Positions 17,400 through 62,629 of a DNA stretch of 64,000 nucleotides are shown piece by piece. A model generated the notes under the pieces. The model saw only the letters and a program-made list of their open reading frames with translations, made no database searches and was not told the DNA's origin. The stretch comes from a virus (taxonomy: Duplodnaviria > Caudoviricetes): positions 128 through 64,127 of IMG/VR virus record IMGVR_UViG_3300034096_000868. One strand, written 5' to 3'. A program made the translations under genes and the position numbers. Numbering within the stretch: the stretch's first letter is position 1; each line of letters opens with the position of its first letter.

Positions 17400-17421
17400 G
17401 GTGTCTCGTGGCATTACCACC

Positions 17422-18072: not shown

Positions 18073-18082
18073 ACTTGCCACC

Positions 18083-21031: not shown

Positions 21032-22504
21032 ATGAAAATTTATACTGGCGGATTGCCAAACAAAAATCCCGTAGACGGTCAATGGTTAGGTGACGTATTG
21101 TTACTTTACCCACAAATCAAGAAACAATTAGTAAAAAAATATTGCGATGATAAAACATTATGTTTTCTTCGTGATTTAATTGGACTAGATGCATCAATAA
21201 ATGAAACTGAATTCCAAAACAGACTAAAGTCTGGACAAATGGGTCTTTCAGGAGATAATATCTCTTGGGCAGTTCAAACGAAAGTTAGACCAGCTTTGAC
21301 TATAACTACATTGCCTCCAATCGGTTCTTCAATAGCACTAAACAGTACATTCACTATTGCATTTGCAGAAGATTGGTTATCTCCAGGAATGGTTGTGACT
21401 ATCAATGATAGCGTGAATGGTGGACAAATCAACTTGTTGATTATGACTGCGGCTACTGGTGCGGGGCCTTATTCTTACACTGCAAAAGTTATTGCAACTG
21501 CTGCGGTAACAATCCCTGCTGGTATAGTAGGTATTGGAGATAGTTTACCATGGACTTGGGCTGCAACTAGTACTTGTACTGAAAGTTGCGTAAAAGCATC
21601 TGTAGTAGCACCTGATTGGTATAAAAACTATACTACACATATCTGTATATCAAGACAAGTATGTAAAACTGGTGTAATGAATAGTACTTGGATAGAGGGA
21701 GCTAATGGCTCAATGTGTTTCCACTCAACAGAAGATTTACAAGTATTTGACTTGTTCTTAGGAACTATGGAAGCTGCCGTATACTATGGTAGAACTAATA
21801 AAAACTCTGCTGGTGCATCTGTGATTACTGGCCCTGATGGAACATTGACTACTGGTGATGGTATCGAAGCTCAAATAGAAGGTGGTAACGTAACTAACTT
21901 CTCTGTGGCTACATATACCAACCCTACGAACTACGCTGCATTCTTAGACTTGATAGAAGTAACTATCGAAGAATGGGCAGCTGAAAGAAACATGGCTAGT
22001 ACAGAATTATTCGCTAGATGCGGCCCTGCTGCATTCTCTTTACTTCAAAAAGTATTAGAGAAAAAAGCATTTACTGCTGGTGGATGTTGTACTTTACATG
22101 ACTTTAAGTCTGGAGAAGCGTATGACTATGCATTAGGTATGAATATCTTGCAATACCATTTTGCAGGTAATATTCTTAACCTAGAAAAATGTATGCTTTT
22201 CGGAAATACATCATTCCAACACGTAAGAAGTGGTAGTGTAATACCTAATGAATCATACAAATTCTTGATACATCCAAAAACAACTTGCGATGGGAAACCA
22301 TTGTATGAAATTTATTTCAGAGAGGGTTGTGGTACATCAAGTGCATTTACTTACAAGTATGTTCCTGGAAAGATGGATCCTAAAGACCCAACTTCTCCAA
22401 AAGCGGCTAACTTGTATGATGGCTACACTGCTGCATACGATACTGAATTTGTTGTGATAGTAAACGAGCCTAGCTCAATGTTACTATTTAGACCAATAGC
22501 TTAG
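21032..22504 (+). CDS. major capsid protein
   Basis: 490 aa, follows the scaffold-like gene and is followed by a terminator; E....YG and TGDGI..QI pattern of HK97-fold crAss-like MCPs. Confidence 0.75.
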   Translation: MKIYTGGLPNKNPVDGQWLGDVLLLYPQIKKQLVKKYCDDKTLCFLRDLIGLDASINETEFQNRLKSGQMGLSGDNISWAVQTKVRPALTITTLPPIGSSIALNSTFTIAFAEDWLSPGMVVTINDSVNGGQINLLIMTAATGAGPYSYTAKVIATAAVTIPAGIVGIGDSLPWTWAATSTCTESCVKASVVAPDWYKNYTTHICISRQVCKTGVMNSTWIEGANGSMCFHSTEDLQVFDLFLGTMEAAVYYGRTNKNSAGASVITGPDGTLTTGDGIEAQIEGGNVTNFSVATYTNPTNYAAFLDLIEVTIEEWAAERNMASTELFARCGPAAFSLLQKVLEKKAFTAGGCCTLHDFKSGEAYDYALGMNILQYHFAGNILNLEKCMLFGNTSFQHVRSGSVIPNESYKFLIHPKTTCDGKPLYEIYFREGCGTSSAFTYKYVPGKMDPKDPTSPKAANLYDGYTAAYDTEFVVIVNEPSSMLLFRPIA

Positions 22505-32331: not shown

Positions 32332-33711
32332 ATGCCTATAACAGGAGGAGGTGGAAATGTTGTTGATTGGGGCTTGCTCACTGCCTTACAAGGGGTAGAT
32401 GATTGGCAACAGAAACGCCTTGATAGAAATGCTGAACTTAATCAAGCAAAACAATTACGTGACTTAGCCGAGCAACAAAAACAACAGCAACAAGAAGCTG
32501 GCGATAAAGTATTCAATATTTATAATGAAGTAGCTAAATTAAAAGTATTGCCTCCCGATACTGAAAAAATTAGAGTAAAAAACGAGGAATTGATAAATCC
32601 TATAATAAATGGTATCAAAAAATATGGCGGCGATGTGAATTTATATTTACAAAGTGGTGGGTACAATGATTTAGTAAAATACAATCAAGATTTACAAGGT
32701 AGCAATGAAGTTGTTTCAGCATTGCGTAGGGCAAAAGATAGTGCAGATTTACAAAATGATGTGAAAGCAGGTAAAATTATTAGACCTGTATACCAAGATG
32801 TGAATGGTTCAAAACAAAAACTTAATCCACAAGACGAACTATCGGCTTTTTTAGATGGCAAGAAAGATGATTTTCAGTATAGAGGTGGGTTTGATCCATT
32901 TAAGTTTGATTTTAGAGATGCATTTTCAAAAACTTATGCTAACAAGGAAAGAAAGTATGCAGAAGCAACAAGAGAAGATGTTGTTAATATGGGACTTACT
33001 GCTGCTAAAGAAAAAGGTATGAATAAGGATGATGCTCTTTATTATGCAGAAGTTGTTGCAGACATATATAAGGAAGGTATAGACAATGGCAATTTAACAC
33101 CTTATATATATAAGTTTGATAATCCATTGGATGACCAAGTTAAGCAAAGTATTCTTGATAAGAATAAAGCTACAACAAACTATACTAATGCTAGAACAAA
33201 TAAAATAAATAGTGGTGGTGGAGATGGTGGTGAAAATGACCCTTATTGGATAAGAAGCATAATGGGTGGTGGAGAAGTTGCAAAGTATGCAACTGGAGAA
33301 TTAATGAATGTAGATTCTGGATATGGTAAAGTTGTCAATACTGAATATATAGAAGCAAAACAAGGACTTCCTTATATAGAGGGAATTACTGGAACGCCTA
33401 AAAGAATTATAAAACTAACTTTTAATTCATCAGACAAAGGAGAAACTACTAAATCATTTGACCTTTCAGACCCAAAACAATTAGCTGAATTAAATTCACT
33501 ACACGCTTTTGGTAGAGTTTCAAAAACATATCCAGATAGAGAGCAAGAATATTTAGATGCTAGTGGGAATACTTCCGTAAAAACGTATAGAAAAGAAACT
33601 CAAACTACTAAAGAGCAGACATATACAATAAAAGGTAAAACTTATACATTGAAAGAGCTTAATGAATTAGGTTATAATGAAGAACAAGTAAAAAATTATC
33701 TAAACAAATAA
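32332..33711 (+). CDS. virion cargo / ejection protein
   Basis: 459 aa, coiled-coil N-terminus, in the cargo cluster. Confidence 0.5.
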   Translation: MPITGGGGNVVDWGLLTALQGVDDWQQKRLDRNAELNQAKQLRDLAEQQKQQQQEAGDKVFNIYNEVAKLKVLPPDTEKIRVKNEELINPIINGIKKYGGDVNLYLQSGGYNDLVKYNQDLQGSNEVVSALRRAKDSADLQNDVKAGKIIRPVYQDVNGSKQKLNPQDELSAFLDGKKDDFQYRGGFDPFKFDFRDAFSKTYANKERKYAEATREDVVNMGLTAAKEKGMNKDDALYYAEVVADIYKEGIDNGNLTPYIYKFDNPLDDQVKQSILDKNKATTNYTNARTNKINSGGGDGGENDPYWIRSIMGGGEVAKYATGELMNVDSGYGKVVNTEYIEAKQGLPYIEGITGTPKRIIKLTFNSSDKGETTKSFDLSDPKQLAELNSLHAFGRVSKTYPDREQEYLDASGNTSVKTYRKETQTTKEQTYTIKGKTYTLKELNELGYNEEQVKNYLNK

Positions 33712-39056: not shown

Positions 39057-39820
39057 GTAATAATTTTTATATATATCGCCACATACGACCTGATACCAAT
39101 GAAGTTTTCTATATTGGTAAAGGGAATAATATGGATAAGAGAAGAAGCGAATATCGTAGAGCTTACCAATTAAGCGGAAGAACTGAATTTTGGAGAAATA
39201 TAGTAGCTAAAAACAACGGTATTTTTAATGTAGAAATACTATGGAATTGTGAAACCGAACAAGAAGCCAATACTAAGGAGATTGAATTTATTGAACTGTA
39301 TGGCAGAAGGGATTTATGTAAAGGCACTCTTGTTAATTTAAGTAATGGCGGAGAGGGCGTAAAAGGAGTTATTTTTAGTAAGGATGTTATTACTAAAAGA
39401 AGTGGTAAAAATCATTACAATTACAAAGGTGGGTTAATGGATAAATACAAGCAAGAAAAAGAAATTAGAAAAAATAAAATATCTGTTATAAATACTGAAA
39501 CAAAAGAAATATTTAGAACTATTACTGATGCAGCAAAAAGTATTGGGATAAGGGTATCAAGCTTAGCAAGATACTTAAATGGCACAAAAACAAATAAAAC
39601 ATCACTTTGCTATTATTCAGATTATTTAGCGAATGATTATAAGGTATTGCAACCCAAAAAAGAAAACAAAGGAGTTTGGAGAAAAGTAATAGATATTGAA
39701 ACAGGAAATATTTATGATAGCATAAGAAAATCTTTATCGGCAACAACTTATAAAGAACAAACTATTAGGAAAATGTTAGACGGGAGAATGGTTAATAAAA
39801 CAAATTTAAGATACGCATAA
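39050..39820 (+). CDS. free-standing GIY-YIG-like homing endonuclease with NUMOD1-type repeats
   Basis: FYIYRH...FYIGKG...E...I......LVN...GGEG followed by two V.N.ET.EIF.TI..AA-type DNA-binding repeats. Confidence 0.8.
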   Translation: MLSNNFYIYRHIRPDTNEVFYIGKGNNMDKRRSEYRRAYQLSGRTEFWRNIVAKNNGIFNVEILWNCETEQEANTKEIEFIELYGRRDLCKGTLVNLSNGGEGVKGVIFSKDVITKRSGKNHYNYKGGLMDKYKQEKEIRKNKISVINTETKEIFRTITDAAKSIGIRVSSLARYLNGTKTNKTSLCYYSDYLANDYKVLQPKKENKGVWRKVIDIETGNIYDSIRKSLSATTYKEQTIRKMLDGRMVNKTNLRYA

Positions 39821-42800
39821 TGGCAGCACCTTGTAAATACTATATCAACGGCAAAACGCTTTCAAAAGAGCAGTTTTTAGACTATGTAAAAACATTATCG
39901 CAAGATGAAATTGCTAATGTAACGCCTCTTATGAAAAAGAAAGTTGGTGAATTTCGCAGTAGTCATTTTGACGAGAAAAATATTTTAGTGCATATTAGGC
40001 ACAATACCCGAACAGATGCAGAAGGTAACAAAGTATTGTTTTTGGAAGAAGTTCAAAGTGATTGGGGGCAAACAGGTAAGAGAGAGGGGTTCAAACAAAA
40101 CAACTTAGAACAATTAAAAAATCAACTTGTTGAAGCAGAAAATGAATATAATAAATTAGATTTCATTAATTTAAAACTTTCAGAAGTAATGAATACTCCT
40201 GAAGCAAAAAAAGTTGAAGAATTAAGAGAAAAAATAAATGCAGAAGAAAAAGTTATAGCTCCTGCTCCATTTGTAATGGACACAAATACTTGGACTAAAT
40301 TAGGTTTAAAAGTAGCCCTTAAAGAAGCGGTTAAACAAGGTGCTGATAAGATTGCTTGGACAACAGGGGAACAACAAAATGAAAGGTATGATTTAAGTAA
40401 GAGCGTAAAAAAAATTGAATGGAGAAGAGATGGGGATTCCTATACGTTAAGCATAACAGGGATTGACAATAATACGGGAAGACCAGAAAGCGTACTGAAA
40501 GCAAAAGACCTTAACGAATTAGAAGGTATAGTTGGAAAAGAAATTGCCCAAAAAATATTTGATGAGTCAGAAAAAAAGAATAAAAAAGTAAATTTAGCAA
40601 GCAAAATATTTCAAGAGGGATCTTGGAGAAAAGCATGGAGTTACGAAACACCAAGCGGGTATGTCAAAAAAGCAAAAGAGGATACAAAAGAAAGCGCATT
40701 AGAAGGCGCAAAAGAAGCGTGGGGAGCAACGTCTTCTAATGGTGTAGTAGAAGGGGAAAATCTTAAAGTAGGCGGCAAAGGCATGAAAGGCTTTTACGGT
40801 TCTCCAACAGAAAATAGTTTAGGAATTGTAGGTAATGTAGCTAAGAGTTTGTTTAAGCAAGAGCCGAAAACGGTTGAAATTAAAGGACAAGAAAAAGGTG
40901 TAAACAAAAAACAATTTGAGTTTTCGGAAAAAGATGGGATGGTTCACGTAAGAGATTCTGATGGTAATTATGTTGGAGATTATGCGACTAAAAAAGATGC
41001 AGATATAGCAATAAGTGAATATGTTAATACACAAAATACCTCCACTCAACACTCCATAGACATAACACCCGAACTAAAAGCACAGGTAGAGGAAGGACAA
41101 GCGTTATTTCAAATAGATTCAAGCAATGCTTCTCAAAACGACAAAGAAACTGCTATCAAAAACTTAGTAGAAAAATGGAAAGCAGATGGACTATCTGATA
41201 CTGAAATTAAAAATATCCTTTCTGAATCACAAACAGGCAAAACTTTCATAGATAAACTTTTTCCTAAAGAGCCAAAAGAACGCTCATTTAGTAGAACGCT
41301 AGAAGATATGCCTACACAAGTGCAAAATCTAGTAGAAAATAAGGATTATATACCTACAACCAATCCCGAGCAAGAAGCCGTTGCCGATAACTTCATTAAA
41401 GAAAATGGAATTGAAGAAGCTACTAAAATATTAATCGATAATAAGACAAGTGAATTATCAGATGCCGAAACTAACATAGTAGCCATGAAGTTGATTAAAA
41501 TTAACAACAAAAATGGTAATTATAAAGAAAGTGCTAGAATATTTGATGAAGTTGCTGAAAAACTTACCGAAGCTGGTAGATTAATTCAAACTGCTGCACT
41601 ATGGAACTTAATGACAGAGCAAGGAGCAGTTGAATACGCTATGAGGTTAAAATCAAAAGGCAGAGTAGCACAAAAAGAAGTAGTAGAACAAGAAGTAAAA
41701 ACTACCAAAGAAAAAATTATAGAAATCGCAAGAGAAATAAATGGATCAAAAGAAATTAAAGATGCCATTGCAAAAATCTACTCAAAAAGAGAGCGTATAT
41801 CTAAGACTAAAAGCCAAAAAGCTATTGATTGGTTGGAAAGTATTAAGGTTAAAGATATGGCATTTACTGCTTTGCCTGGAGTAAACTTACTTCCTGCTAC
41901 CTACAACACTGCAATTAACATTATCCAAACTGGTATCAAAGCAAATATTATGTTAAATACGGCGGTTGCACAAGCTGTAAAATATATTCGTGAAAATATC
42001 ACTGCTGATGAAAGTTTTGATGAAAGCAAGTTCAAGAAATTCATACTAGATAATTTACCTAAGATTGAAGATGATGCCATAAAGGTTGCTGAACAAGAAC
42101 TAGGTAAGAAAATATCCGATGTGGTAAATGCTCACTATGATATTAAGGAAGAATATAAGAAATCATTACTTGATAGCATATTGAGCAAAACTGACTTGAC
42201 GGAATTAGAAGCAAAGGTTATTGCAGATATAGTTGAAACCAAGTTTGCACAAGAAGCCGATAAAAAGCTAGATGCACTAGAAAAGAAACAAAAATCACAA
42301 GCTAAGAAAGTTGATGATAAAATTGCCAAGGTAGAATCTGAAATAAAAGCTATTGAGAATGGAACGTACAAGCAAGACAAAAAATATCCTACTACTAAGA
42401 GCGAGAAACAAAAAGAACTAGATGTTTTACGTAAGCAAAAGCGTGAATTACTAGGTACAGAGCAACCATACGTGAAAATTGTAGATAGAATCAATAAAGG
42501 GACAATTTCTAATACTGATATGAAAGAATTGCTTTATTCAGACATTGGATTATCTAATTTAGATGCAAATACCATAGCTAAAATTGAGGAAATGCATAGA
42601 AAAGTTAAGGATGCTCCACAAGGCTCGGCAGAACAAAGAGATAGATTAGCTGATTTACTAGATTTTATTGACAAAGAAATAAACGGAACAGATAATTGGG
42701 CCATTGCTAAAAGTTTAATGTATGCAAGTTTACTTTCGGCATCAAGTACGCAAGTAAAAAACTTTGTATCTAATACTATGCAAATGACTGCAGAAGCGTA

Positions 42801-45577: not shown

Positions 45578-48451
45578 TTAATCAAAATTTATTTTCAAAT
45601 TTCTGATTATTTTTTCCAAACAAGCTACTACTATTGAGTTGCCACCTTGACGATACAACTGCGAATCAGATAAACTATTCTTAGGATTGGCCTCATTGTA
45701 TTTTTTCACATTATCCATAAAACTTTCCTCGAAGTCCATCAAACGGAATACTTCGGTTGGGGTTAATCGGCGTATTCTTTTGTTCTGATTTGTAGCTAAT
45801 CCACTTCTATCGCTTCTTAAAGCAGGAGAATATTTATCATAAACCCTTGTTTCTTCTCCAAAACTATTAGTTAAATCTAAAATAACAGGCTCTTGTGTTC
45901 CACCTTGAATAAAGTTTTGCTCAACTGCAATCTTAGGCTCTTGATTCCCACCACCCATAGTATGAATTGTTGGTGCAACACCATTTTTATCATAAACTCT
46001 ACCACTTTGCTCATGTGTTTTATCCCACTTGCCACCCGTTAGTTGATATTCTACTATCGGATTAGGTTCAGAACTAACCATAACTAAGTTATCTTTTTGA
46101 ACAGTTGTAATTGCATTGCTAGTGCTACTCTCATTTGGTTCAATATTCTGCTCAATAACTCCATCCTCATTATATCTGCCTCGCATAGCAACTATTGTAG
46201 GTTCGTCAAGTAATATATTTTTACTTCTAGCATCCGTATCTAAAGTAGTCATTACTCCATTTACATCATAAACCCTATTATGCTGAAATGGTTGTTTGCC
46301 TCCACTCTCTTTACTAGGATTTAATTGTCTTACTTCTGGAGTGTTATCTTCAATCACACCACTCTCCACATATCCATTGGCATAACCATGTGTTCTTGCA
46401 CACATATTTGGACTTACTCCATTATCTGAATAAACTTGACTTGCTTGTGTATCTTGATTGATAAATCCTACTTTGAGAATATTATCAGTAGGACATAAAG
46501 CTGCGTTAGCTCTTATTGTTACTGCTATTGAGTTTTCATCTTTATAATCTACTGCAAATCCTGTTCCTTTTTTATTATGCCTATCAGCATGACTTGTTAG
46601 CATATTTAACATACTATCACTCAAAAAATACTTTTCATCTACAATAGGTTCTAAAACATCTTTTAATCTTAGTTTTAAAACTTCTTTTATAGGGAATCTG
46701 AAACTATTATCTGCATCATCACGAATACCAACAATAAATATCCTTTCTCTATTTTGTGGCACTCCATGTTCTTTTGCATTTAGCACCTGGAAATAGATAT
46801 GATATGGCACACTATCCTCATAAGGAATAAAAGTTGCATTGCCATTAATTGATTTACCCCCTAGATAATTAATCCATTCGGAAAAAGTCTTACCATACTT
46901 AGCTTTTTTATCCGTTTTGTCATGTGAAAGCAAACCTTTGACATTTTCAAAAATGAAGTATTTGGGTTTATTTTCACGTATGAAGTCTAGTGAACTGAAA
47001 AACAAGACACCTCGTTTGTCATCTTTACCCTTTCTTTTACCAGCCAAAGAAAATGATTGGCAGTTATGTACTATTGCTTGATTAGCGGTATAAGAATGAT
47101 CGTTTTCAACCGTTATATCATAAACTTCTTCAACTTCTTCGGTTTGTTTAATGTATTTTATTGGATACCATATTTTATCGTCAATAACGACAGCGTTAGA
47201 TTGCTTACGCATTTCTTTTCTAAATTCTAATACATAATAATCTCTTTGATTAACTACTCTGCCTTGTATTATTGTTGTGTTTGGAGTTTTAACTATTCTT
47301 AAATTAGAATTTACATTGTGTATTTTAGCAATACAAAGTTGCAAACCCATCAATAATTCTTTACTAATAGAAGTTGCTCTAAATGCATCCTTATGAATAT
47401 GTCCATCTCCATCCATATATCCATTAACGAAATGTTTTAATATGTCAATAGGTAGGTTTATAATAGATTGAGGTATCCTTTTATTTATTGCTCCTTTACC
47501 TAAACCTATTTCTTTTATAAGATTTACTAATCCGTTTGAAAATATAAATAATTTGCGAACTCCATTTATTTCTTTACTAATATGATGTTTTACTTTTATT
47601 TTGGTAGATATTTCATCAACTTTATCTTTTCCTATTGCTAACATGACAGCGTCTCCTTTTGATTTGCCTTTATATTTCGACTCTCTTAACCATCCGTCAG
47701 CGACATATCTGCCTAATATGTAAGCTATTTCTTCTGTTATGCTATATTTATTTTCAATTAATTGAGGTATATTAATGCCAATAAAATGATTCTTAGTTAG
47801 ATTTTTAGCTTCTATCCATTTAGGTTCACTAAATACTCTTATTTGTGTTCTATTTTTATATACATAAGACTTTTCTCTAACATAATATTTATGATTCTCT
47901 GTGGTTTTAGTTTCTAATATTCCTTGAGCTTTTACATTTAATATTTTAGAGTATTTACTTCCTTTCGCTATTACCTTTTCGTACTTATTATTGTGAGTTA
48001 ATACCATATCTCCAATATTAATATCTTTAATTTGAACAAATCCTTCGCTTGTGTTTATTAAAGTATCTCCAGAAAAGCAAGGTACAGAGGACATATACAA
48101 GTCGATTGGATCTACCGGAACTTCTCTTTCATACATATTAAAAGGAAAATAGAATGAGAAAGTTTTAGCAAACTCATTGGCATCTACTAATATTTGCTTA
48201 TCTTCATCACATACTTCAATACTAGCATCCATTAGTGCAATCCTTTTTACTTCATCACAAAAGAACTTATGTTTTTTAGATTGTGCAATCTGAACATCTT
48301 TATCTGTTCCATATTGAATACAATAGTTTAGCCTAGCATAGTAATCAAAATCACACGCAAAACTTTCCTCATAGTCAATACCTAATCTTTTAACTGCTTG
48401 AATTAGAGAACCTACTCCACAGCAGTCCGAACCAACTTTAATTTTAGCCAT
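45578..48451 (-). CDS. C5-cytosine DNA methyltransferase containing an intein
   Basis: P-[intein]-CQSFS..GK (motif IV), FENVKGL (VI), PQNRERIF (VIII), RRLTP.E..RLM, YRQGGNSIVV (X). Confidence 0.9.
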   Translation of the reverse strand: MAKIKVGSDCCGVGSLIQAVKRLGIDYEESFACDFDYYARLNYCIQYGTDKDVQIAQSKKHKFFCDEVKRIALMDASIEVCDEDKQILVDANEFAKTFSFYFPFNMYEREVPVDPIDLYMSSVPCFSGDTLINTSEGFVQIKDINIGDMVLTHNNKYEKVIAKGSKYSKILNVKAQGILETKTTENHKYYVREKSYVYKNRTQIRVFSEPKWIEAKNLTKNHFIGINIPQLIENKYSITEEIAYILGRYVADGWLRESKYKGKSKGDAVMLAIGKDKVDEISTKIKVKHHISKEINGVRKLFIFSNGLVNLIKEIGLGKGAINKRIPQSIINLPIDILKHFVNGYMDGDGHIHKDAFRATSISKELLMGLQLCIAKIHNVNSNLRIVKTPNTTIIQGRVVNQRDYYVLEFRKEMRKQSNAVVIDDKIWYPIKYIKQTEEVEEVYDITVENDHSYTANQAIVHNCQSFSLAGKRKGKDDKRGVLFFSSLDFIRENKPKYFIFENVKGLLSHDKTDKKAKYGKTFSEWINYLGGKSINGNATFIPYEDSVPYHIYFQVLNAKEHGVPQNRERIFIVGIRDDADNSFRFPIKEVLKLRLKDVLEPIVDEKYFLSDSMLNMLTSHADRHNKKGTGFAVDYKDENSIAVTIRANAALCPTDNILKVGFINQDTQASQVYSDNGVSPNMCARTHGYANGYVESGVIEDNTPEVRQLNPSKESGGKQPFQHNRVYDVNGVMTTLDTDARSKNILLDEPTIVAMRGRYNEDGVIEQNIEPNESSTSNAITTVQKDNLVMVSSEPNPIVEYQLTGGKWDKTHEQSGRVYDKNGVAPTIHTMGGGNQEPKIAVEQNFIQGGTQEPVILDLTNSFGEETRVYDKYSPALRSDRSGLATNQNKRIRRLTPTEVFRLMDFEESFMDNVKKYNEANPKNSLSDSQLYRQGGNSIVVACLEKIIRNLKINFD
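47063..48079 (-). mobile_element. intein (339 aa) with a LAGLIDADG homing endonuclease
   Basis: starts CFSGDTLI, block B TTENHKY, LGRYVADG and FVNGYMDGDG motifs, ends VYDITVENDHSY...VHN, followed by Cys+1. Confidence 0.92.
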
Positions 48452-56880: not shown

Positions 56881-56997
56881 AACGTCCGAGTGCTTGGCGA
56901 AGTTGCCGAACACAAAAGTTAAACTGAAAAACAAAAGTTGAAATTATGGATAAAGTTGAATTGAAAGACGAAACGGCAATTTTGCCAAACCCGTGTT
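56881..56997. repeat. attC-like hairpin B1
   Basis: TTGGCGAAGTTGCCG / CGGCAATTTTGCCAA; arm GTTATGTGCTGGGC vs GCCTTGCACATAAC. Confidence 0.8.
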
Positions 56998-57569
56998 ATG
57001 TGCTGGGCGGTTTAAAGAAGTATTCTGTTATTTACGCTGACCCTGCTTGGAGTTACGATTTTAAAGAGCCTACTGCATCCAAAGGTGGGGCGAAAGGAAG
57101 TGGTTATTCAGCAGGTGTTAATTACTACTATGGAACAATGACAACTAAACAGATACTTGAATTGCCTGTAAAAAACATTTGCGAAAAGGATTGTGTGCTT
57201 TTTCTATGGGCGACTAATCCGCTTTTACCCGAAGCCTTAGAAACGATGAAGGCTTGGGGGTTCAAATACAAAACGATGATTACTTGGCACAAAGAACGAT
57301 GCAAAGGAATGGGATATTGGTTTCGTGGGCATACCGAACATATTTTAGTAGGGGTAAAAGGGAATGTAAAAGCGTTTCGTTCTTTGGAACACAATATAAA
57401 AAAGTTGCCCGTAGAAAAGCATAGCAAAAAGCCTGATGAATTTAGGCAAATGATTGAAGCAGTTACAGGCAATTTAGGAAATAGAATAGAATTGTTTGCA
57501 AGGAATAACCACGAGGGATGGGATGCTTGGGGAAATGAAGTAGGTTCGTCTGTCGAAGTAGGATGGTAG
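56946..57569 (+). CDS. cassette B1: MT-A70-family N6-adenine methyltransferase
   Basis: YSVIYADPAW, LFLWAT, WGFKYKT..W.K, G.GYWFRG.TEH, HSKKP, IELFAR, GWDAWGNE. Confidence 0.9.
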   Translation: MDKVELKDETAILPNPCYVLGGLKKYSVIYADPAWSYDFKEPTASKGGAKGSGYSAGVNYYYGTMTTKQILELPVKNICEKDCVLFLWATNPLLPEALETMKAWGFKYKTMITWHKERCKGMGYWFRGHTEHILVGVKGNVKAFRSLEHNIKKLPVEKHSKKPDEFRQMIEAVTGNLGNRIELFARNNHEGWDAWGNEVGSSVEVGW

Positions 57570-57579
57570 CCTTGCACAT

Positions 57580-57702
57580 AACGGTCTAGGGCTTGACGCA
57601 GGTAGGAATAGAAAGCATAATTGCTTGTTTACTTACCAATGCTGAAAAGAGTGCTAAAGCCGAATAAAGCACCAAAGCCCTACTTGCGTTCAAACCCTTG
57701 TT
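57580..57702. repeat. attC-like hairpin B2
   Basis: AGGGCTTGACGCAGGTAGG / CCTACTTGCGTTCAAACCCT; arm GTTATATGCCGTTTT vs AAAATGGCATATAAC. Confidence 0.85.
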
Positions 57703-57751
57703 ATATGCCGTTTTTATCGGCTCAAATTTTTAACTTTTAAATAATAAATAT

Positions 57752-58087
57752 ATGTCTAAAATAACACAAGAAGATTATACAAAAGCACTTGAAACTATTA
57801 AAAAATTTCAATGTCAATGCTCAAAATGCGGAACACAATTTGGTGATAGGTGGGAATGGAATGCAAATTCATTCAAACTACAATTAAATATAGATTGCCA
57901 AAGTACAGACGCTTTATTTGGCGAAAAAGCAAATGAAATAGGGTTTAATCATCCTGCAATAGAAAAAGGTGCAGGGTATCAAAGATTAACGATTTCAAGC
58001 GGTAGAGAATTGCCTTATAGACTTTGTCCATCTTGTCATAGAAAGTTTTTTCGTCTTATAGGGGACTTTCTGCAAAATGGCATATAA
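57752..58087 (+). CDS. cassette B2: Zn-finger-like protein
   Basis: CSKCG ... LCPSCH; stop codon in TAAC. Confidence 0.7.
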   Translation: MSKITQEDYTKALETIKKFQCQCSKCGTQFGDRWEWNANSFKLQLNIDCQSTDALFGEKANEIGFNHPAIEKGAGYQRLTISSGRELPYRLCPSCHRKFFRLIGDFLQNGI

Positions 58088-58176
58088 CGTGATGCGGCTT
58101 TGTGTCTGTTTGCCCCTTGCTCAAAGTTTCAAGTTATCACAAATGTTGATGGGGCAAATAGCACAAAACCGCTGTT
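58086..58176. repeat. attC-like hairpin B3
   Basis: GCGGCTTTGTGTCTGTTTGCCCC / GGGGCAAATAGCACAAAACCGC; arm GTTATAGGCAGTAGGG. Confidence 0.85.
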
Positions 58177-58227
58177 ATAGGCAGTAGGGATTTTTAGCAG
58201 AATGTTTAATTTAAAAACAAATAAAAA

Positions 58228-58665
58228 ATGAACAACTTAAAAACAAAAGAAGATAGACAAGAAGCTATCAAACAAATTGAAAAAAGTTTTTTAACTACAA
58301 TCAAAAGTAATGGGCTTGAACTTTCAGAAGAAGCTGTTTGCAGAATAAACCAAAATAGTATTGAACTTGGTATTTGTGCAATAGGAAAGTATGCTGAAAA
58401 AGGTTATCAAATGGCTTTTGCATCGGCTATTGAATTGTATGCAAAAAGCTATGATGATGAACTTGGATTTGGAAGAAAAGAAAACGAAATAAACTTTGGT
58501 AGTTCTGGTTCTTTTAATCCATCTGAACGAGAAAGTTATTGGAGAACTATACACGCTGCATCTGTATTGAAAAATTGGGATATTGTTTCAGAAATTGTAA
58601 ATACCCATTGCAAAATGTATTGTGATTTGAGCAAGAAAATCTTTGAGGTAAATGTTCAATCGTAG
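58228..58665 (+). CDS. cassette B3 hypothetical protein
   Basis: 145-aa ORF filling the cassette. Confidence 0.7.
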   Translation: MNNLKTKEDRQEAIKQIEKSFLTTIKSNGLELSEEAVCRINQNSIELGICAIGKYAEKGYQMAFASAIELYAKSYDDELGFGRKENEINFGSSGSFNPSERESYWRTIHAASVLKNWDIVSEIVNTHCKMYCDLSKKIFEVNVQS

Positions 58666-58683
58666 CACGTCTGCCCTATTGCC

Positions 58684-58805
58684 TACGTTGAGCATATACG
58701 AAGGCAGGGCTTTGAAACTCAAATGCTCGTTTACTTCCGAAAGTTTAATCAACATATAAAAGCTGAAAGTTTGCACTTCTGCCCTGCTTTTGTATATGTA
58801 TTGTT
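58684..58805. repeat. attC-like hairpin B4 (junction AAC damaged)
   Basis: CATATACGAAGGCAGGGC / GCCCTGCTTTTGTATATG; arm GTTGGCAGTAGTGCT vs AGCATTACTGCCAAC. Confidence 0.8.
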
Positions 58806-58846
58806 GGCAGTAGTGCTTTTTGTCAAACTAGAATAAATTTAAGAAT

Positions 58847-59137
58847 ATGGAATTATGTAATTTTTCAAAGGCTTGGGTTGGTAATTGTAAAAATGAAAAA
58901 CCTTGCAAAGAACACGCTGAAATTAAATGCGGTTCTTGTGGTGAGCCTGCCACAAGAGAATGTGCTGAAACTGGTCAATTTGTTTGCGGTGTTCCTCTGT
59001 GTGATAATTGTGAGCATACTATCTACGAAGATGGTACAAATGGAGGTATTGGTTTTAATCAACAACGACCACACGAAGGAATGAAGTCACATTGTAAAAA
59101 GTCAGAACAAAAATTTAAAAGCTGGTATGAGCGGTAG
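58847..59137 (+). CDS. cassette B4: Cys-rich Zn-binding protein
   Basis: multiple CxxC / CxxH motifs in 96 aa. Confidence 0.7.
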   Translation: MELCNFSKAWVGNCKNEKPCKEHAEIKCGSCGEPATRECAETGQFVCGVPLCDNCEHTIYEDGTNGGIGFNQQRPHEGMKSHCKKSEQKFKSWYER

Positions 59138-59156
59138 TGTCGGTAGCATTACTGCC

Positions 59157-59237
59157 AACGTTTTGCAGATTGGCGAAGTTGCAAAATTGCGTTGGATTTG
59201 TGCGGTGGGATTTTGCAATTTTTGCCAATGTGCTGTT
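59157..59237. repeat. attC-like hairpin B5
   Basis: GCAgATTGGCGAAGTTGCAAAAT / ATTTTGCAATTTTTGCCAATgTGC; arm GTTATCAGCAGTTCT vs AGAATTGCTGATAAC. Confidence 0.85.
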
Positions 59238-59276
59238 ATCAGCAGTTCTTTTTTCACACTTAAATAATTATCAAAA

Positions 59277-59678
59277 ATGAATACATTAAAATTAACACTA
59301 AAAAAACAATGGTTTGACCTTATCAAAGAAGGTATCAAAACCGAAGAGTACAGAGAAATAAAGCCTTATTGGTTTGAAAGATTAGTTTTTCAATATGAAA
59401 AGGCTTTTAAATATTGCACTGGATATGATTACAAGCAACAACTTTATGTAAACGAAGGAATACAACATACTCTTTCTGAAAGTAAAAAATCAATGGTTGC
59501 AATGAAACCTTTTGACTTTGTAGAATTTACAAATGGATATAATTCTACAAGCCCAAAAATCACTTTAGAGTGTCAAAATATTATAATTGGGCAAGGATTA
59601 GAAGAATGGGGAGCAGTCAAGGGCGAAAGATATTTTATAATCAAACTCGGTCGTGAGGTTGGTCGGCAGAATTGCTGA
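59277..59678 (+). CDS. cassette B5: ASCH/PUA-like domain protein
   Basis: L.L.LKKQWFDLI..G.KTEEYRE.KPYW..RL ... F.NGY ... YF.I.LG. Confidence 0.8.
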   Translation: MNTLKLTLKKQWFDLIKEGIKTEEYREIKPYWFERLVFQYEKAFKYCTGYDYKQQLYVNEGIQHTLSESKKSMVAMKPFDFVEFTNGYNSTSPKITLECQNIIIGQGLEEWGAVKGERYFIIKLGREVGRQNC

Positions 59679-59679
59679 T

Positions 59680-59970
59680 AACGGTTCGCAGCTATATTTA
59701 GTTGCGGATTTAGAATCACAAATTATCAAATTAGTAATAACTTAAATAGAAAGAAAAATGTCAAAGAAACCACAGAAACCGCAATTGAATATAGCTGTTG
59801 TTAGCGGTAGTTTTTATTGGGTTCGTCCGTTCCATAAAGACGAGTTTGAACCTGCTAAATGTAAAGAACTATACGGAACAGATAAGCTATATTTTTTTTT
59901 CACAAATGGAAGTCGAATGGAAGTTGAACGTGCTTGGGAAGTAGAGCCGTTAAATTACCGCTAACGTTTT
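59680..59970 (+). repeat. exact dispersed repeat, copy 2 (cassette B6 = A5, including its hairpin 59680-59802)
   Basis: identical by eye to 18083..18373. Confidence 0.95.
59758..59964 (+). CDS. cassette B6 hypothetical protein
   Basis: identical 68-aa translation to 18161..18367. Confidence 0.7.
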   Translation: MSKKPQKPQLNIAVVSGSFYWVRPFHKDEFEPAKCKELYGTDKLYFFFTNGSRMEVERAWEVEPLNYR

Positions 59971-60084
59971 CGGGCTTTGCGTAGTAGGGGATTAAATGCA
60001 CTACGCTTGGTCTTAGCACAAATGTTTATTAGAAGCAGATAGTTTGGTTTAGCACTATCGCCCCTATTACGCAAAGCCCGTGTT
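59963..60084. repeat. attC-like hairpin B7
   Basis: CGGGCTTTGCGTAGTAGGGG / CCCCTATTACGCAAAGCCCG; arm GTTATATGAAGGTGGG vs CCCACTTTCATATAAC. Confidence 0.9.
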
Positions 60085-60180
60085 ATATGAAGGTGGGATT
60101 TTCACGCACTACACTTAAATAGAAGCACGTAAAAAGAAAAAGAAAAAATGAGCGTGGGAAACAATTTAATTTAAACAAAA

Positions 60181-60726
60181 ATGGGAACAAGAAATTTAAC
60201 AATGGTTATTAACCAAGAAGGAGAAAAGAAAGTAGCACAATACGGACAATGGGATGGTTATCCATCTGGAGTTGGGGTAGGTGTTCTTAAATTCCTTAAA
60301 GACAAAGAGGTGTTTGAAAAATTCAAAGTCAACTTATCTAAAGTGAGATTTTTAGATGAAGAAGGTGTTGATAAGGAATTTATTGAAAGCTACAATAAAA
60401 ATGCTCCACAATGGAGCAATGAACCAGACAACAGAACCGAAGAACAAAAACGTTGGTTTTCTACTTATTGCAATCGTGATTTAGCAGAAGAAGTTTTAAC
60501 CAATATCGCCAACTCTACTGACAAAGAAATTGTTTTAATGGATAGAGAAAACACCGCAAAAGGTGATGGATGGGTAGAATATTCGTATGTTATAAACTTG
60601 AAAGAAAATACGCTTGGCGTTTATGGACACATTGACCAAGAGCCAATGAAAGTTTACAAACTTGATGAACTACCTGAAGAAGATGTTTTCGTTTCTGAAT
60701 TGGAAGGAGTTGAAGAAGAAGATTAA
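60181..60726 (+). CDS. cassette B7 hypothetical protein
   Basis: MGTR......QY.QWDGYP.G.G ... EY.YVI.L motif pattern seen in phage hypothetical proteins. Confidence 0.75.
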   Translation: MGTRNLTMVINQEGEKKVAQYGQWDGYPSGVGVGVLKFLKDKEVFEKFKVNLSKVRFLDEEGVDKEFIESYNKNAPQWSNEPDNRTEEQKRWFSTYCNRDLAEEVLTNIANSTDKEIVLMDRENTAKGDGWVEYSYVINLKENTLGVYGHIDQEPMKVYKLDELPEEDVFVSELEGVEEED

Positions 60727-60800
60727 AAAGAGCGTGGGCGGATTTTTTCTTTTTCTTTCTCACGAAAGTTCAATCGAAGCACGTCTGCCCACTTTCATAT

Positions 60801-61033
60801 AACGGCATTGGGCTAAACGCAGTAGGGGTTTCCTACCTGTAAAGATGGAATGGCAGACAATTCAAGTTTAACTTTGTTCTTGATTGTTTGGACGACATCC
60901 CCCTATTGCGTTTTAACCCATGTTATAAGTCTGGTGGCGGGGCGTAGTGATTAAGGTAACAATAAGGGCAGAGTAAACTGCACAAACCCTAAATTAAATC
61001 CACTACCATTAATGCCCGCCACTTGCTTATAAC
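60801..61033 (+). other. cassette B8: ORF-less cassette with hairpin 60801-60924
   Basis: TGGGCTAAACGCAGTAGGGG / CCCCTATTGCGTTTTAACCCA; arm GTTATAAGTCTGGTGGCGGG vs CCCGCCACTTGCTTATAAC; no ATG-initiated + strand ORF over about 25 codons seen. Confidence 0.75.
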
Positions 61034-61116
61034 GGTTGGGTGTATGAGAAGGTTTGCTTGTAGAAACTTTCAAATTACAACTGAACTTAATAGCAAACTT
61101 TCTTATACACTTTGTT
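61031..61116. repeat. attC-like hairpin B9
   Basis: GTGTATGAGAAGGTTTGCT / AGCAAACTTTCTTATACAC; arm GTTATGTGTTGTTTT vs AAAATGACACATAAC. Confidence 0.85.
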
Positions 61117-61143
61117 ATGTGTTGTTTTTAAATTAAATAAAAT

Positions 61144-61371
61144 ATGGAAACAGGAAATTTAATTAAATCAACCAATTTCAACACAACACCATATTGGGTT
61201 GTAAAATGTGATAATTCAAATTTAATTGGTAATAGAAATGGTGAATTACCAATAGACCCTTTGAGTTTTAATTTTCATCCTTGGTCTATCTTAGAAAACA
61301 GAACGGTTAAATTTGAATTGGTTGAAATTGGTAGTGATGATAGATTGAAATGGTATGCTCGTCTAAAATGA
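61144..61371 (+). CDS. cassette B9 hypothetical protein
   Basis: 75-aa ORF whose stop lies in the terminal arm. Confidence 0.65.
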   Translation: METGNLIKSTNFNTTPYWVVKCDNSNLIGNRNGELPIDPLSFNFHPWSILENRTVKFELVEIGSDDRLKWYARLK

Positions 61372-61376
61372 CACAT

Positions 61377-61452
61377 AACGTTTTGCAGATAAGCGAAGGC
61401 ACAAATAGCGTTGGCTTTAGCGAGGAATTTGGGCTTTTGCTTATGTGCTGTT
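61377..61452. repeat. attC-like hairpin B10
   Basis: GCAgATAAGCGAAGGC.CAAAT / ATTTG.GCTTTTGCTTATgTGC; arm GTTAGCAGTAGGTTT vs AAACTTACTGCTAAC. Confidence 0.85.
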
Positions 61453-61497
61453 AGCAGTAGGTTTTTTAACTAATTATAAATTTAAAATAAATACAAA

Positions 61498-61731
61498 ATG
61501 GAAAATCAAGAAGTATTAAAATTCACTTGGAAAAAAGGAATTAAAGAAGTAAAACCTGCACACCCAATGGTTCAAAATTGGATGTTTACAGAAGAAACAG
61601 AAGAACAAGCAAGTTTAGCACATTATATGGCTGTTGTTGCTGAAAAGAATGGATTAACGGCAAATGATTTGCAACACTTATTCCCTGCTGTCCTTCGGAT
61701 GTTGAAAGATAGTTCAGCGTGGTCTAAGTAA
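61498..61731 (+). CDS. cassette B10 hypothetical protein
   Basis: 77-aa ORF filling the cassette. Confidence 0.65.
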   Translation: MENQEVLKFTWKKGIKEVKPAHPMVQNWMFTEETEEQASLAHYMAVVAEKNGLTANDLQHLFPAVLRMLKDSSAWSK

Positions 61732-61741
61732 ACTTACTGCT

Positions 61742-61795
61742 AACGTGTATATGTATTCAATACTCACAATTTATTAATAATCAAAAATATATATT
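61742..61795. other. candidate attI-like primary insertion site
   Basis: last AAC of array B, not followed by a hairpin, 51 bp before the integrase ATG. Confidence 0.55.
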
Positions 61796-62629
61796 ATGGA
61801 TTTTCTAAAGTATCAAAATAAATTTAGAATTGATTTAGATTTAAAATATTCTAATTCTTTGCAAACTAGAAATAATTATTTTTCTTGTGTTGTTAATTTT
61901 TTACAACATTTTAAAAATGAAAAAGAGCCTAAATCAATAAGTACTGATTCTATTAAATTATATTTGCTTTCTTTTAAAACTATAAATACTCGTAGAGCAA
62001 ACTTATGTGCAATAAAAGCATTTTACAAGCTAACTGTGAATATGCCTAATAAAATAGATAGAGTTCCTTTTCCTCAAAAAGAAAGAAGATTACCTATTAT
62101 TATAGATCAAATTGATGTACAGAAAATGTTTGATGTGTGTTCCAACTTGAAACACAAGTGTGTAATGGCAGTTCTCTATGGTACTGGAGTGAGAATATCC
62201 GAATTAATAGGCATTAAATTAAGTGATATTAGAAGAAATGAAAAGACTATTAGAATAATAGGCAAGGGGAATAAAGAAAGATTTGTGCCACTAAATGATA
62301 GCCTACTTCAATTAATAACAAATTATTGGAGAGAATATAAAACTAAAATATGGTTGTTTGAAAATGATTTATCACATACTCAATATAGCAAAAGAAGTGT
62401 TGGTTTGTTTTTAAAATCATTTAAAGAAAAAGCAAACATAAAAAGTCCAGTAAGTCCTCATAAATTCAGACACTCACACGCTACTGCATTATTAGAGCAA
62501 GGAACAGATTTAAGAATCATACAAAAGGAACTTGGACATAACTCAATAAAAACAACCCAATTATATACTCATGTATCTACAAATATTATAAGTAAAATAA
62601 ACTCACCATTAAACAATATAAACATATAA
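61796..62629 (+). CDS. tyrosine recombinase, integron-integrase-like
   Basis: catalytic R (YGTGVRISE), K (GKGNKER), HxxR (HKFRH), H (LGH), Y (TTQLYTHV); the YTHV....SPL ending resembles IntI. Confidence 0.92.
   Translation: MDFLKYQNKFRIDLDLKYSNSLQTRNNYFSCVVNFLQHFKNEKEPKSISTDSIKLYLLSFKTINTRRANLCAIKAFYKLTVNMPNKIDRVPFPQKERRLPIIIDQIDVQKMFDVCSNLKHKCVMAVLYGTGVRISELIGIKLSDIRRNEKTIRIIGKGNKERFVPLNDSLLQLITNYWREYKTKIWLFENDLSHTQYSKRSVGLFLKSFKEKANIKSPVSPHKFRHSHATALLEQGTDLRIIQKELGHNSIKTTQLYTHVSTNIISKINSPLNNINI

Follow-up and report, generated by a model that had tools for sequence, protein, structure and literature searches.

The array of small genes at positions 56881-61795 of the window (the whole stretch of 64,000 nucleotides of the phage record IMGVR_UViG_3300034096_000868 that was analysed) is probably a phage-borne platform for gene cassettes, integron-like in its construction and a mirror image of an integron as far as its genes are concerned. 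Comparison of related sequences documents its anatomy, the borders of its cassettes, their shuffling between phages and the association with one family of recombinases.

Organization of the Two Arrays

Between 56881 and 61795 the + strand carries nine ORFs with attC-like imperfect hairpins (AACG, arm, loop, arm, TGTT) between them; all gap-filling ORFs of at least 60 aa in 56946-61731 lie on the strand of the recombinase gene. The features of this array (array 1) and of a second one, at 16087-18412, are the following, with the evidence in brackets.

56881-56925, +, left border of array 1, a short degenerate site after AAC (homology to the sister phage L002 ends here; weak fold)
56946-57569, +, gene of unit 0, MT-A70 DNA methyltransferase (Pfam MT-A70, 1.2e-30; phrog_359)
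57580-57702, +, hairpin heading the cassette of ORF 57752-58087 (scanner, fold)
57752-58087, +, cassette ORF, 111 aa (ORF list)
58086-58176, +, hairpin heading the cassette of ORF 58228-58665 (its TAAC overlaps the stop codon of the preceding ORF)
58228-58665, +, cassette ORF, 145 aa (ORF list)
58685-58805, +, hairpin with damaged core, AC instead of AAC (fold)
58847-59137, +, cassette ORF, 96 aa, Cys-rich (ORF list)
59157-59237, +, hairpin heading the cassette of ORF 59277-59678 (scanner, fold)
59277-59678, +, cassette ORF, 133 aa (phrog_625; weak ASCH match)
59680-59802, +, hairpin with the ATG of its own cassette (59758) inside the loop (scanner, duplicate comparison)
59758-59964, +, cassette ORF, 68 aa; the unit 59680-59970 is duplicated (copy at 18083-18373)
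59963-60084, +, hairpin heading the cassette of ORF 60181-60726 (scanner, fold)
60181-60726, +, cassette ORF, 181 aa (ORF list)
60801-61030, +, ORF-less unit, hairpin 60801-60924 and a self-folding body of 106 nt (scanner, fold)
61031-61123, +, hairpin heading the cassette of ORF 61144-61371 (scanner, fold)
61144-61371, +, cassette ORF, 75 aa (ORF list)
61377-61452, +, hairpin heading the last cassette (scanner, fold)
61498-61731, +, last cassette ORF, 77 aa (ORF list)
61742-61760, +, attI-like site, AAC followed by a conserved unstructured box of the GTGTATATGTA type (left side variable, right side conserved among sister phages)
61796-62629, +, Xer-like tyrosine recombinase, 277 aa (Pfam, NCBIfam, residue alignment, PDB matches)
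16087, 16480, 16759, 17422, 18083 and 18366, +, six hairpins of array 2 (scanner)
16199-16468, 16509-16760, 16923-17399 (YopX), 17587-18072 and 18161-18367, +, five ORFs of array 2 (ORF list)

The hairpins were located with a polar scanner requiring AACG, two complementary arms and TGTT in this order, so that sites with other cores are missed. Eight were found in array 1 and six more in array 2; over the whole 64 kb, the 14 matches are all on the + strand (0 on the - strand) and confined to the two arrays, and since 20 dinucleotide shuffles gave a mean of 0.65 matches for both strands combined, the imperfect AAC...GTT inverted repeats expected of an integron are present well above chance. Folded as single-stranded DNA, the + strand gives z values between -2.4 and -5.3 for seven of the eight array-1 hairpins and -2.2 for the remaining one. 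A ninth hairpin, 58685-58805, folds well (z -3.4) and has probably lost the ability to recombine, judging from its damaged core; the fold of the leftmost site, 56881-56925, is at the level of shuffled sequence (z -0.18). Array 2, for which neither an adjoining recombinase gene nor an attI-like end was found, would match a CALIN structurally.

Much of what had been proposed in the sequence-only reading is borne out by this layout. The nine ORFs run in the same direction as the integrase gene; the limits given to the array are exact, 56881 coinciding with the first AAC and 61795 immediately preceding the ATG of the recombinase; the 3' junction beside the integrase (61742-61795) is indeed without a hairpin and unstructured (z +1.19). 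The arrangement is inverted as described, in that from attI outwards the gene 3' end, the gene 5' end and the hairpin are met in this order, the mirror of a classical cassette, and the recombinase gene begins beside attI and is directed off the array, as in classical integrons.

The Recombinase, Its attI-Like Site and Their Relatives

The product of 61796-62629 matches Pfam Phage_integrase (PF00589; 8.6e-41, 140 bits against a cut-off of 27.1) and contains the R-K-H-R-H-Y catalytic set (R133, K157, H222, R225, H248, Y257), which is invariant across 28 homologues. Its best sequence matches are Xer proteins (XerA and XerD models; PDB 4a8e and 1a0p), and its score is below every NCBIfam cut-off: neither the Xer equivalog thresholds (XerA_Arch, 194.5 against 220; XerD, 182.7 against 329.6; XerC, 177.6 against 335.15) nor that of the IntI model TIGR02249 (156.9 bits against 265) are reached. 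The match to TIGR02249 falls into two stretches (model positions 14-187 and about 262-330), skipping the IntI-specific insertion, and that to IntI4 (PDB 2a3v) is likewise in two stretches. This adjacent 277-aa recombinase is the likely catalyst of cassette recombination; it could, additionally or instead, have a role in phage integration.

The attI-like site lies 52 nt upstream of the recombinase gene. At most related loci the integrase ATG is preceded, at a distance of 40-55 nt, by a conserved YAAC followed by TA(C/T)TATATGTA, and what lies left of this motif is variable. As in integrons, an unstructured attI-like site adjoins the start of the integrase gene, where the array begins; the break between variable and conserved sequence coincides with its AAC. 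Three cassettes occupy the attI-adjacent place in one phage and an inner place in another (L014/L016, L010/L057, L038/L013), which indirectly suggests that new cassettes may enter at this recombinase-proximal site. To this extent the earlier proposal of entry beside the integrase is upheld; its corollary, that the proximal end should be the most variable, is not, since the arrays of near-identical phages differ at both ends and no polarity of variation can be demonstrated.

A homologue search returned 1936 proteins at E<=1e-20, and 300 relatives on viral contigs were obtained; 80 loci were kept, several being repeat samplings of one phage. In these 80 loci the 360,241 nt preceding the integrase genes contain 167 hairpins on the + strand and the 552,712 nt following them 4; another 9 hairpins are on the opposite strand. 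Where at least 1 kb of upstream sequence was available, at least one hairpin was found in 53 of 61 loci, the other 8 having the integrase and the attI motif with zero hairpins; given these loci and the recombinase-less array 2, the link between enzyme and sites is a statistical one. Of 103 unique units, 100 have their longest ORF on the + strand.

The same site family occurs in Bacteroidota chromosomes carrying their own insertion-less IntI-like integrases (L096, L101 and L100). The chromosome of the flavobacterium Ichthyenterobacterium magnum (L096) encodes a 277-aa integrase, 37% identical, with the same sites and the same attI position; its ORFs are opposite to the polarity of the sites, which is the classical geometry as far as orientation goes, and integrase and genes diverge. 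In Flavobacterium (L101 and L100) the sites, AACG...TGTT with arms of the GTATATG type, and the attI-like box are again those of the phage, as they are in L096; the integrase ORF is of about 584 aa and, unlike in the phage, the genes have the classical orientation relative to the sites, with the integrase upstream and running in the same direction.

Among virulent phages, CALINs with attC-like hairpins among small genes and methyltransferase genes have been reported, including one in Polaribacter phage P12002L (Qi et al. 2023, PMC9892861), in which the scanner finds four sites of the array type on the gene strand. There the phage sites are treated as IntI substrates without a cognate enzyme, and a foreign IntI1 recombines attC-like sites from virulent phages; unlike the present case, no phage Xer-like recombinase, attI-like site or reversed orientation is described in the portion of that article available to us.

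It might be a host enzyme, for instance an integrase of the L096 type or the host Xer, that moves the hairpin units, the phage recombinase being devoted to lysogeny or genome resolution. This explanation draws on the chromosomal arrays with their own integrases, on the activity of IntI1 on phage sites (Qi et al. 2023, PMC9892861) and on array 2 and P12002L, which carry hairpins without any recombinase of this family; nevertheless we consider it unlikely, given that in those 53 of 61 loci the hairpins stand directly upstream of the phage integrase family and on its strand, that the attI-like box keeps its distance of 40-55 nt from the ATG with the variable/conserved break exactly at its AAC, and that the genes of the host arrays are oriented oppositely.

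The Cassette Unit and Its Borders

That a hairpin precedes each gene, as had been claimed, is unreadable from one array, because ORFs and hairpins merely alternate; it is confirmed by three comparisons, which also place the crossover at AAC on the + strand. The unit 59680-59970 is repeated within the genome at 18083-18373 with 291 of 291 positions identical and unrelated flanks, the identity extending from the AAC of the upstream hairpin to the AACGTTTT of the next site. In the sister phage L002, whose integrase is 100% identical and whose flanks are 95-99% identical, homology stops at 56884 (GCTCAACG) and resumes from 61740 (CTAACGTG...); between the same two outer AAC borders L002 has a different array of 1.8 kb, as against 4.9 kb in the window, from which the MT-A70 methyltransferase gene (56946-57569) is absent. 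Finally, in an all-against-all comparison of the arrays of related phages, all seven relocated blocks of at least 95% identity run from AAC to AAC. L016 and L014 have four cassettes in common in a different order, so that the independent mobility of cassettes typical of integrons is seen here as reordering, relocation and, in L002, as a swapped array.

The AAC side does not account for every case. One of the eight relocated blocks overall begins on the GTT side (L029/L041, 852 nt, 92% identical, starting at TGTT), and among the 24 contig breaks listed of 102 from four lake metagenomes, 4 are on the AAC side, 4 on the GTT side and 16 elsewhere, so that GTT accounts for half of the eight site-adjacent breaks. 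The GTT-side breaks are at 59799 (two runs), 59804 and 61453; the contig broken at 61453 has a diverged look-alike hairpin, an explanation which does not extend to the breaks at 59799. No excised circle was seen, the comparison having covered assembled contigs.

Additional evidence comes from the flanks and the gene starts. The flanks on the two sides of a gene, one downstream of GTT and the other upstream of the next AAC, are complementary over at least 6 contiguous nt in 69 of 100 unique units; the adjacent flank lying across the hairpin gives 1% and randomly paired flanks 2%. Such complementarity implies, as far as sequence can tell, that cassettes pass through a circular form. The longest ORF starts inside the hairpin in 35 of 100 units: ORFs 59758 and 16509 have their start codons within the loops of their own hairpins, and in L002 ORF 8354-8524 lies entirely inside a loop and two further ORFs begin in loops. 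As genes are found inside the sites, the hairpin cannot belong to the preceding gene. Taken together, these observations show a mobile unit made up of a hairpin and the gene that follows it, with both borders at AAC.

The strand bias of the hairpins allows two readings. G.T pairs make up 420 of 3558 stem pairs on the + strand and 224 of 3331 on the - strand, and of 155 hairpins 101 fold more stably on the + strand and 37 less stably; a function of the hairpins in the mRNA would explain the G.T bias just as well. If the hairpins were regulatory or RNA elements (attenuators, processing or stabilising stem-loops), modules might be shuffled by homologous recombination between them. T4-type phages offer a parallel, with promoter-stem-loop cassettes before small accessory genes in variable regions whose modules shuffle, presumably by homologous recombination; these are not known to have a dedicated recombinase, a fixed trinucleotide border or flank complementarity. 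The position of the hairpins upstream of each gene on the coding strand, their G.T enrichment there, a T run 6-20 nt downstream in 56 of 155 of them and subfamilies alike enough for alignments to extend into the hairpins are all compatible with such a role. We find it quite improbable all the same, because the borders fall at one fixed trinucleotide rather than at variable points within the hairpins, homologous exchange does not predict complementary flanks in 69 of 100 units against 1-2% in controls, the association with a tyrosine recombinase gene and with an attI-like box is constant, and terminator-like sites are at shuffle level (as are the matches of a sigma-70 promoter scan).

Ordinary integron cassettes (gene then attC, G|TT crossover) derived from a host integron and left as a CALIN beside an unrelated phage integrase, suggested by the + strand order of gene, AAC...GTT hairpin and gene and by stop codons that abut or overlap AAC as in classical cassettes, are hardly credible and largely refuted by the AAC-to-AAC borders, since the duplicate and the seven near-identical relocations carry the upstream and not the downstream hairpin, the variable region is delimited by AAC at both ends, the integrase-side one lacking a hairpin, and genes begin inside the upstream hairpin.

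Comparison with Classical Integrons and Xer Systems

Several traits are shared with classical integrons: an unstructured attI-like site at the 5' end of a tyrosine recombinase gene, one-gene cassettes between imperfect AAC/GTT hairpins with occasional ORF-less units, flank complementarity implying circles, and the shuffling of cassettes among close relatives. Other traits differ. The phage recombinase is without the IntI-specific insertion, and its sites show conserved T.G mismatches and, beside the core, a 5-by-1 internal loop, possibly in place of the extrahelical bases and unpaired central spacer of attC. The phage genes may start or lie wholly in a hairpin loop, and the carrier is a crAss-like phage. 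The classical order (gene then attC, crossover G|TT at the 3' side, genes directed away from attI) was not found; indeed, the cassette gene is directed towards attI in 100 of 103 unique units, as would follow from a crossover on the side of the hairpin that precedes the gene. No published description of such a reversed phage array was found.

With respect to Xer systems (XerC/D and archaeal XerA), the phage array differs in having no dif-like 28-bp site, many sites and exchangeable cargo; Xer enzymes are known to use a folded single strand as substrate when CTX phage integrates (the attP hairpin).

Proposed Mechanism and Significance

Along the recombination site a T-AAC-G core comes first, then the 5-by-1 internal loop, an imperfect stem of 20-25 bp, a loop that measures between 10 and about 300 nt, and finally a T-GTT-A core; the stop codon of the cassette gene lies about 12 nt before the next AAC. 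On the reading we prefer, that of a phage-borne cassette platform, each cassette is one small gene preceded by a recombination site that folds. The + strand would fold as single-stranded DNA, and the recombinase would catalyse recombination on this coding strand at the 5' AAC of the hairpin; with the crossover at this position, excision would yield a circular cassette, whose 6-7 nt ahead of the terminal AAC may pair with the 6-7 nt that follow GTT and so complete the R box. The unstructured site 52 nt before the recombinase start codon would be the likely entry point, equivalent to attI, into which cassettes are inserted. The genes, being directed towards attI and the recombinase gene, are aligned with the long one-way gene block of the phage, and their expression would presumably depend on upstream phage promoters or on their own signals, and not on a promoter of the platform. 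As proposed in the sequence-only reading, the recombinase gene might be co-transcribed with the array, and the expression gradient might be reversed.

With confidence only a little above balance, we lean towards the further view that Bacteroidota phages, here a crAss-like lake phage, possess their own branch of integron-like gene capture, in which an insertion-less Xer/IntI-like recombinase acts on the coding strand; recombination on this strand would make the cassette "site first, gene second". If this is true, genes may begin inside the site, and captured genes would match the one-way transcription of the phage; the phage cassette pool would be kept separate from the mirror-image pool of the host arrays, and the phages would have a marketplace of their own for trading accessory genes, among them methyltransferase and perhaps counter-defence genes.

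The Phage and Its Cassette Arrays

The window comprises nearly the whole of a linear IMG/VR record of 64,127 nt (CheckV completeness 61%), the public runs that hold this stretch being lake-water metagenomes; the features relevant to the discussion are the following.

16087–18412, + strand: array 2, with six hairpins and five ORFs; no recombinase gene and no attI-like end
21032–22504: Crassvirus-type major capsid protein
26318–30376: crAss muzzle protein (E 3.3e-89)
56881–61795, + strand: array 1
56881–56925: leftmost site of array 1, degenerate
58685–58805: hairpin that folds well and has lost one A of the AAC core
61742–61760: attI-like site
61796–62629, + strand: recombinase gene (277 aa)

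Since the window encodes a Crassvirus-type capsid protein and a crAss muzzle protein together with a P22-like portal, it belongs to a crAss-like phage. Its GC content is about 30%, that of the array being 35–38% versus about 29% in the flanks, and all sizeable ORFs from about 50 kb to the window end lie on the + strand. Array 1 consists of nine + strand ORFs separated by long imperfect inverted repeats; a polar scanner (AACG, two complementary arms, TGTT) detected eight hairpins here and six in array 2, 14 on the + strand and 0 on the - strand, against a mean of 0.65 in 20 dinucleotide shuffles, while the same scanner found no AACG/TGTT hairpin elsewhere in the window on either strand. As single-stranded DNA, these hairpins have fold z-scores of -2.2 to -5.3; the 54 nt preceding the recombinase ATG are unstructured. 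The array bounds proposed in the sequence-only reading were borne out, 56881 being the first AAC and 61795 the base before the ATG.

Most cassette products have no match; those recognizable are an MT-A70 methyltransferase, a YopX-family protein, phrog_625 and, in the sister phage L002, a lipoprotein. A sigma-70 promoter scan returned 29 candidates versus 30.4 expected, and terminators numbered 4 versus 3.8. A 181-aa cassette ORF is flanked by an extra inverted repeat (60120–60180 and 60727–60770), an A/G run before the ORF and its complement after it, located within the cassette and separate from the recombination site. Elsewhere, the - strand at 45578–48451 encodes a 957-aa C5 cytosine methyltransferase split by an intein that contains a LAGLIDADG domain (Pfam matches DNA_methylase, Intein_splicing, Hint_2 and LAGLIDADG_3).

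Assignment of Hairpins to Genes

As genes and hairpins alternate, a single array is undecidable as to which gene owns which hairpin, and the assignment comes from comparison between copies. The segments 59680–59970 and 18083–18373 are the same at 291/291 positions and represent one cassette present twice in the window; the identity runs from the AAC of the upstream hairpin into AACGTTTT of the following site, with unrelated sequence on both sides. The sister phage L002, whose integrase is 100% identical, aligns with the window (95–99% identity) as far as 56884 and then from 61740 onwards, carrying between these breaks a different array of 1.8 kb versus 4.9 kb in the window; both breaks fall at AAC and neither at GTT. 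Two viral relatives, L016 and L014, show 98.8% identity in the surroundings of the integrase and have in common four cassettes (97.7–100% identity) in changed order, each block extending between the AAC of one hairpin and the following AAC. When all arrays were compared with one another, 7/7 unique relocated blocks with at least 95% identity were bounded AAC to AAC. Finally, ORFs may start within their own upstream hairpin, as do those at 59758 and 16509 in the window; in L002, one ORF is entirely contained in a loop and two others begin in loops, the 3' arm encoding in one of these a lipoprotein signal peptide. In 35/100 units the longest ATG-ORF starts inside the hairpin, an upper estimate given that the first ATG was taken.

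On the basis of these five comparisons, all of which tie the hairpin to the following gene, its assignment to the preceding gene was rejected, and the unit is the hairpin plus the gene that follows it. The array is a real feature, and the sequence-only reading, according to which the cassette genes are inverted relative to classical integrons, is correct as to polarity.

Unit Borders and Crossover Side

In 69/100 unique units, at least 6 contiguous nt after GTT pair with the nt before the next AAC, compared to 1% with the array flank on the other side of the hairpin and 2% in random pairs; this complementarity, which points to a circular intermediate, is expected whichever gene owns the hairpin and so does not discriminate between the two assignments. 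The median distance between stop codon and next AAC is 12 nt, the TAA overlapping the AAC in 18/100 units.

The expectation that crossovers would not map to the GTT side holds for the majority of cases, the AAC side being used in 7/7 relocated blocks and in L002, but a minority of GTT-side events was also found. In particular, a relocated block in the viral relatives L029 and L041 (92% identical) starts at TGTT. In Logan contigs from four lake runs, which are assemblies in which circles and rare junctions are not visible, 4 breaks were on AAC sides, 4 on GTT sides and 16 elsewhere, among the 24 listed of 102; the joints listed have short sides, of 21–42 nt. One of the contigs with a GTT-side break carries a diverged look-alike hairpin, and breaks at 59799 in two runs place the gene body found there in the window behind another hairpin. 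Some exchange on the GTT side therefore takes place, of the kind that minor top-strand events would produce.

The attI-Like Site and Cassette Turnover

In most loci, the motif YAAC followed by TA(C/T)TATATGTA is found 40–55 nt before the ATG, the window version being GTGTATATGTA; in one group of near-identical phages the sequences are identical to the right of the motif AAC and all different to its left. Past the attI-like site and ahead of the recombinase start codon, the window (61770–61795) and most loci have a conserved A-rich box of the AATAAAATCAA type, which might act as a promoter or translation signal, or else serve as an accessory binding site.

Entry of new cassettes beside the integrase had been suggested from array layout, and the corresponding check on the variability of the integrase-proximal end gave no directional signal: the arrays of sister phages differ throughout, at both ends, and neither end stands out as the most variable. 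Three of the 7 relocated blocks are adjacent to attI in one phage and internal in another; entry at attI is plausible.

Fold of the Site

In the usual + strand fold, the unpaired bases number 8 at the 5' end (AAC and five more) and 4 at the 3' end (one base and GTT), which amounts to a 5-by-1 internal loop beside the core. Conserved bases include a T at positions -8 (92%) and -1, an A at +1 and a G at both +5 and +8, from which a T.G opposition at R-box position 8 follows. G.T pairs are about twofold more frequent in stems on the + strand (420/3558) than on the - strand (224/3331), and the + strand is the more stable in 101/155 hairpins and the less stable in 37, as calculated with RNA parameters. 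In classical integrons, the folded bottom strand is the one carrying 5'-AA/C; both biases fit folding of the coding strand, which here carries 5'-AA/C, and fit equally well a role of the hairpins in RNA.

Array 2 and Small Units

Array 2 is bordered on one side by a 58-aa ORF and on the other by an N6/N4 methyltransferase gene (18508–19491); it ends with a 47-nt mini-hairpin followed by GTTAGCAGTAG, the closing AAC being absent. A tiny ORF-less unit, composed of GTTA, a few nt, TCGTTTTAATG, its complement and TAAC, recurs in L002 (8270–8305 and 8555–8590), beside attI in the viral relatives L013 and L025, and in the window (18375–18405); it resembles an "empty cassette" reduced to an R-box hairpin whose loop has a constant length of 11 nt. 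The loop of the first array hairpin of L002 (8150–8280) holds two stem-loops resembling tRNA T-arms (GGTTCGAnTCC type); these are not detectable as tRNA, ARAGORN calling no tRNA gene in L002, in the window or in the viral relatives L011, L014, L016 and L063.

The Recombinase and Its Distribution

The enzyme scores 140 bits in Pfam and is a complete tyrosine recombinase; its catalytic residues do not vary among 28 homologues. Of the NCBIfam models it fits archaeal XerA (194.5 bits; cut-off 220), XerD and XerC best, and it matches the integron-integrase model in two stretches, with the IntI insertion skipped; the nearest solved structures are XerA (4a8e), XerD (1a0p) and, again in two stretches, IntI4 (2a3v). 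There are 1936 homologues at E<=1e-20, mostly of 276–277 aa, the best match being 44% identical in cellular genomes and 32.5% in cultured phages; a scan of genome contigs with the single protein found no relative, and a profile scan gave matches. Relatives occur on at least 300 viral contigs.

In the 80 of these loci that were kept, which include repeat samplings of some phages, 167 + strand hairpins lie upstream of the integrase in 360,241 nt versus 4 downstream in 552,712 nt, nine being found on the other strand. At least one hairpin is present in 53/61 loci having at least 1 kb upstream, and the last hairpin never ends less than 177 nt from the ATG. Of 103 unique units, 100 have their longest ORF on the + strand and 2 on the - strand, and 1 lacks an ORF. 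Eight integrase loci have no hairpins; together with array 2, these indicate that sites and enzyme do not always occur together. A single viral contig of 87,793 nt (L006 and L037) carries two recombinase genes of this family, with 74% and 48% identity to the query; the former has an attI-like box and no detected hairpins.

Bacterial Arrays of Opposite Polarity

Among the more distant cellular matches, Ichthyenterobacterium magnum DSM 26283 (L096; NZ_RAQJ01000002.1, 1–3967) has a chromosomal array of four cassettes and encodes an insertion-less, IntI-like integrase of 277 aa, 37% identical to that of the window, whose best NCBIfam model is integron integrase, the match being split in two and its score under the cut-off. 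The integrase strand carries four sites of the window type and, some 110 nt ahead of the ATG, an attI-like box; four ORFs on the opposite strand start about 12 nt from AAC and end at the next hairpin; by orientation of ORFs and sites, this is the classical divergent integron geometry, with respect to which the phage arrays are reversed. In two Flavobacterium loci (L101, 8800–13646, and L100), an integrase ORF of about 584 aa lies upstream of, and co-directional with, at least 7 ORFs placed between sites opposite to them in polarity; an attI-like box is found just past the integrase stop codon. Since the sites oppose the genes in all three bacterial loci, the phage arrays are the reversed ones within one site family.

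Relation to Known Systems

Three features define integrons: an IntI with its special insertion, attC sites, and genes pointing away from attI, a direction that lets one platform promoter read the cassettes. The phage platform works alike in the capture and shuffling of cassettes; it differs in the enzyme, which is without the IntI insertion, in the shape of the folded site and in the reversed genes. The missing insertion and the reversed cassette polarity place it outside the integron family in its current definition.

Clusters of attC sites without integrase have been described in virulent phages, Polaribacter phage P12002L among them, and phage attC sites were shown to be recombined by IntI1 (Qi et al. 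2023, PMC9892861); the passages of that paper dealing with these clusters name neither a phage Xer-like recombinase nor the reversed polarity. The cultured virulent phage P12002L (L164) carries 4 sites of the present type on the gene strand:

32492–32694, gene strand: hairpin
39123–39244, gene strand: hairpin
39516–39709, gene strand: hairpin
40152–40554, gene strand: hairpin

No recombinase of the window family was found in P12002L at E<=1e-20. One of its hairpins is near methyltransferase genes (29–32 kb), such genes reportedly being part of the published CALIN. A paper on epsilon crAss-like phages mentions only the use of IntegronFinder, and literature searches for integron-like systems in phages gave no description of a reversed phage cassette platform; the supplementary tables of Qi et al. 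2023 may list more such CALINs.

The Polaribacter phages Freya_1 to Freya_10 were set aside: their integrase is 27.5% identical and lies 74 to 4171 nt from the record start, the 4.1 kb upstream in Freya_10 hold no AACG...TGTT hairpin, and looser AAC/GTT matches there are equal on both strands. Immediately upstream of this distant integrase, the isolates (L165, Freya_10; L166, Freya_1) vary in their content of small genes by as much as 4.1 kb, and the Freya_1 record begins exactly at the AAC that in Freya_10 comes after GTTGCT.

The cassette platform extends beyond bacteria alone to phages, on at least 300 viral contigs, and the occurrence of the same sites with opposite gene polarity in phage and flavobacterial arrays offers a direct handle on how and why cassette orientation is set. 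If the recombinase is active, the IntI insertion would be dispensable for recombination at folded hairpins, an entire class of cassette platforms would be overlooked or misinterpreted by tools requiring IntI and classical polarity, and phages would have a site-specific route to trade small accessory genes.
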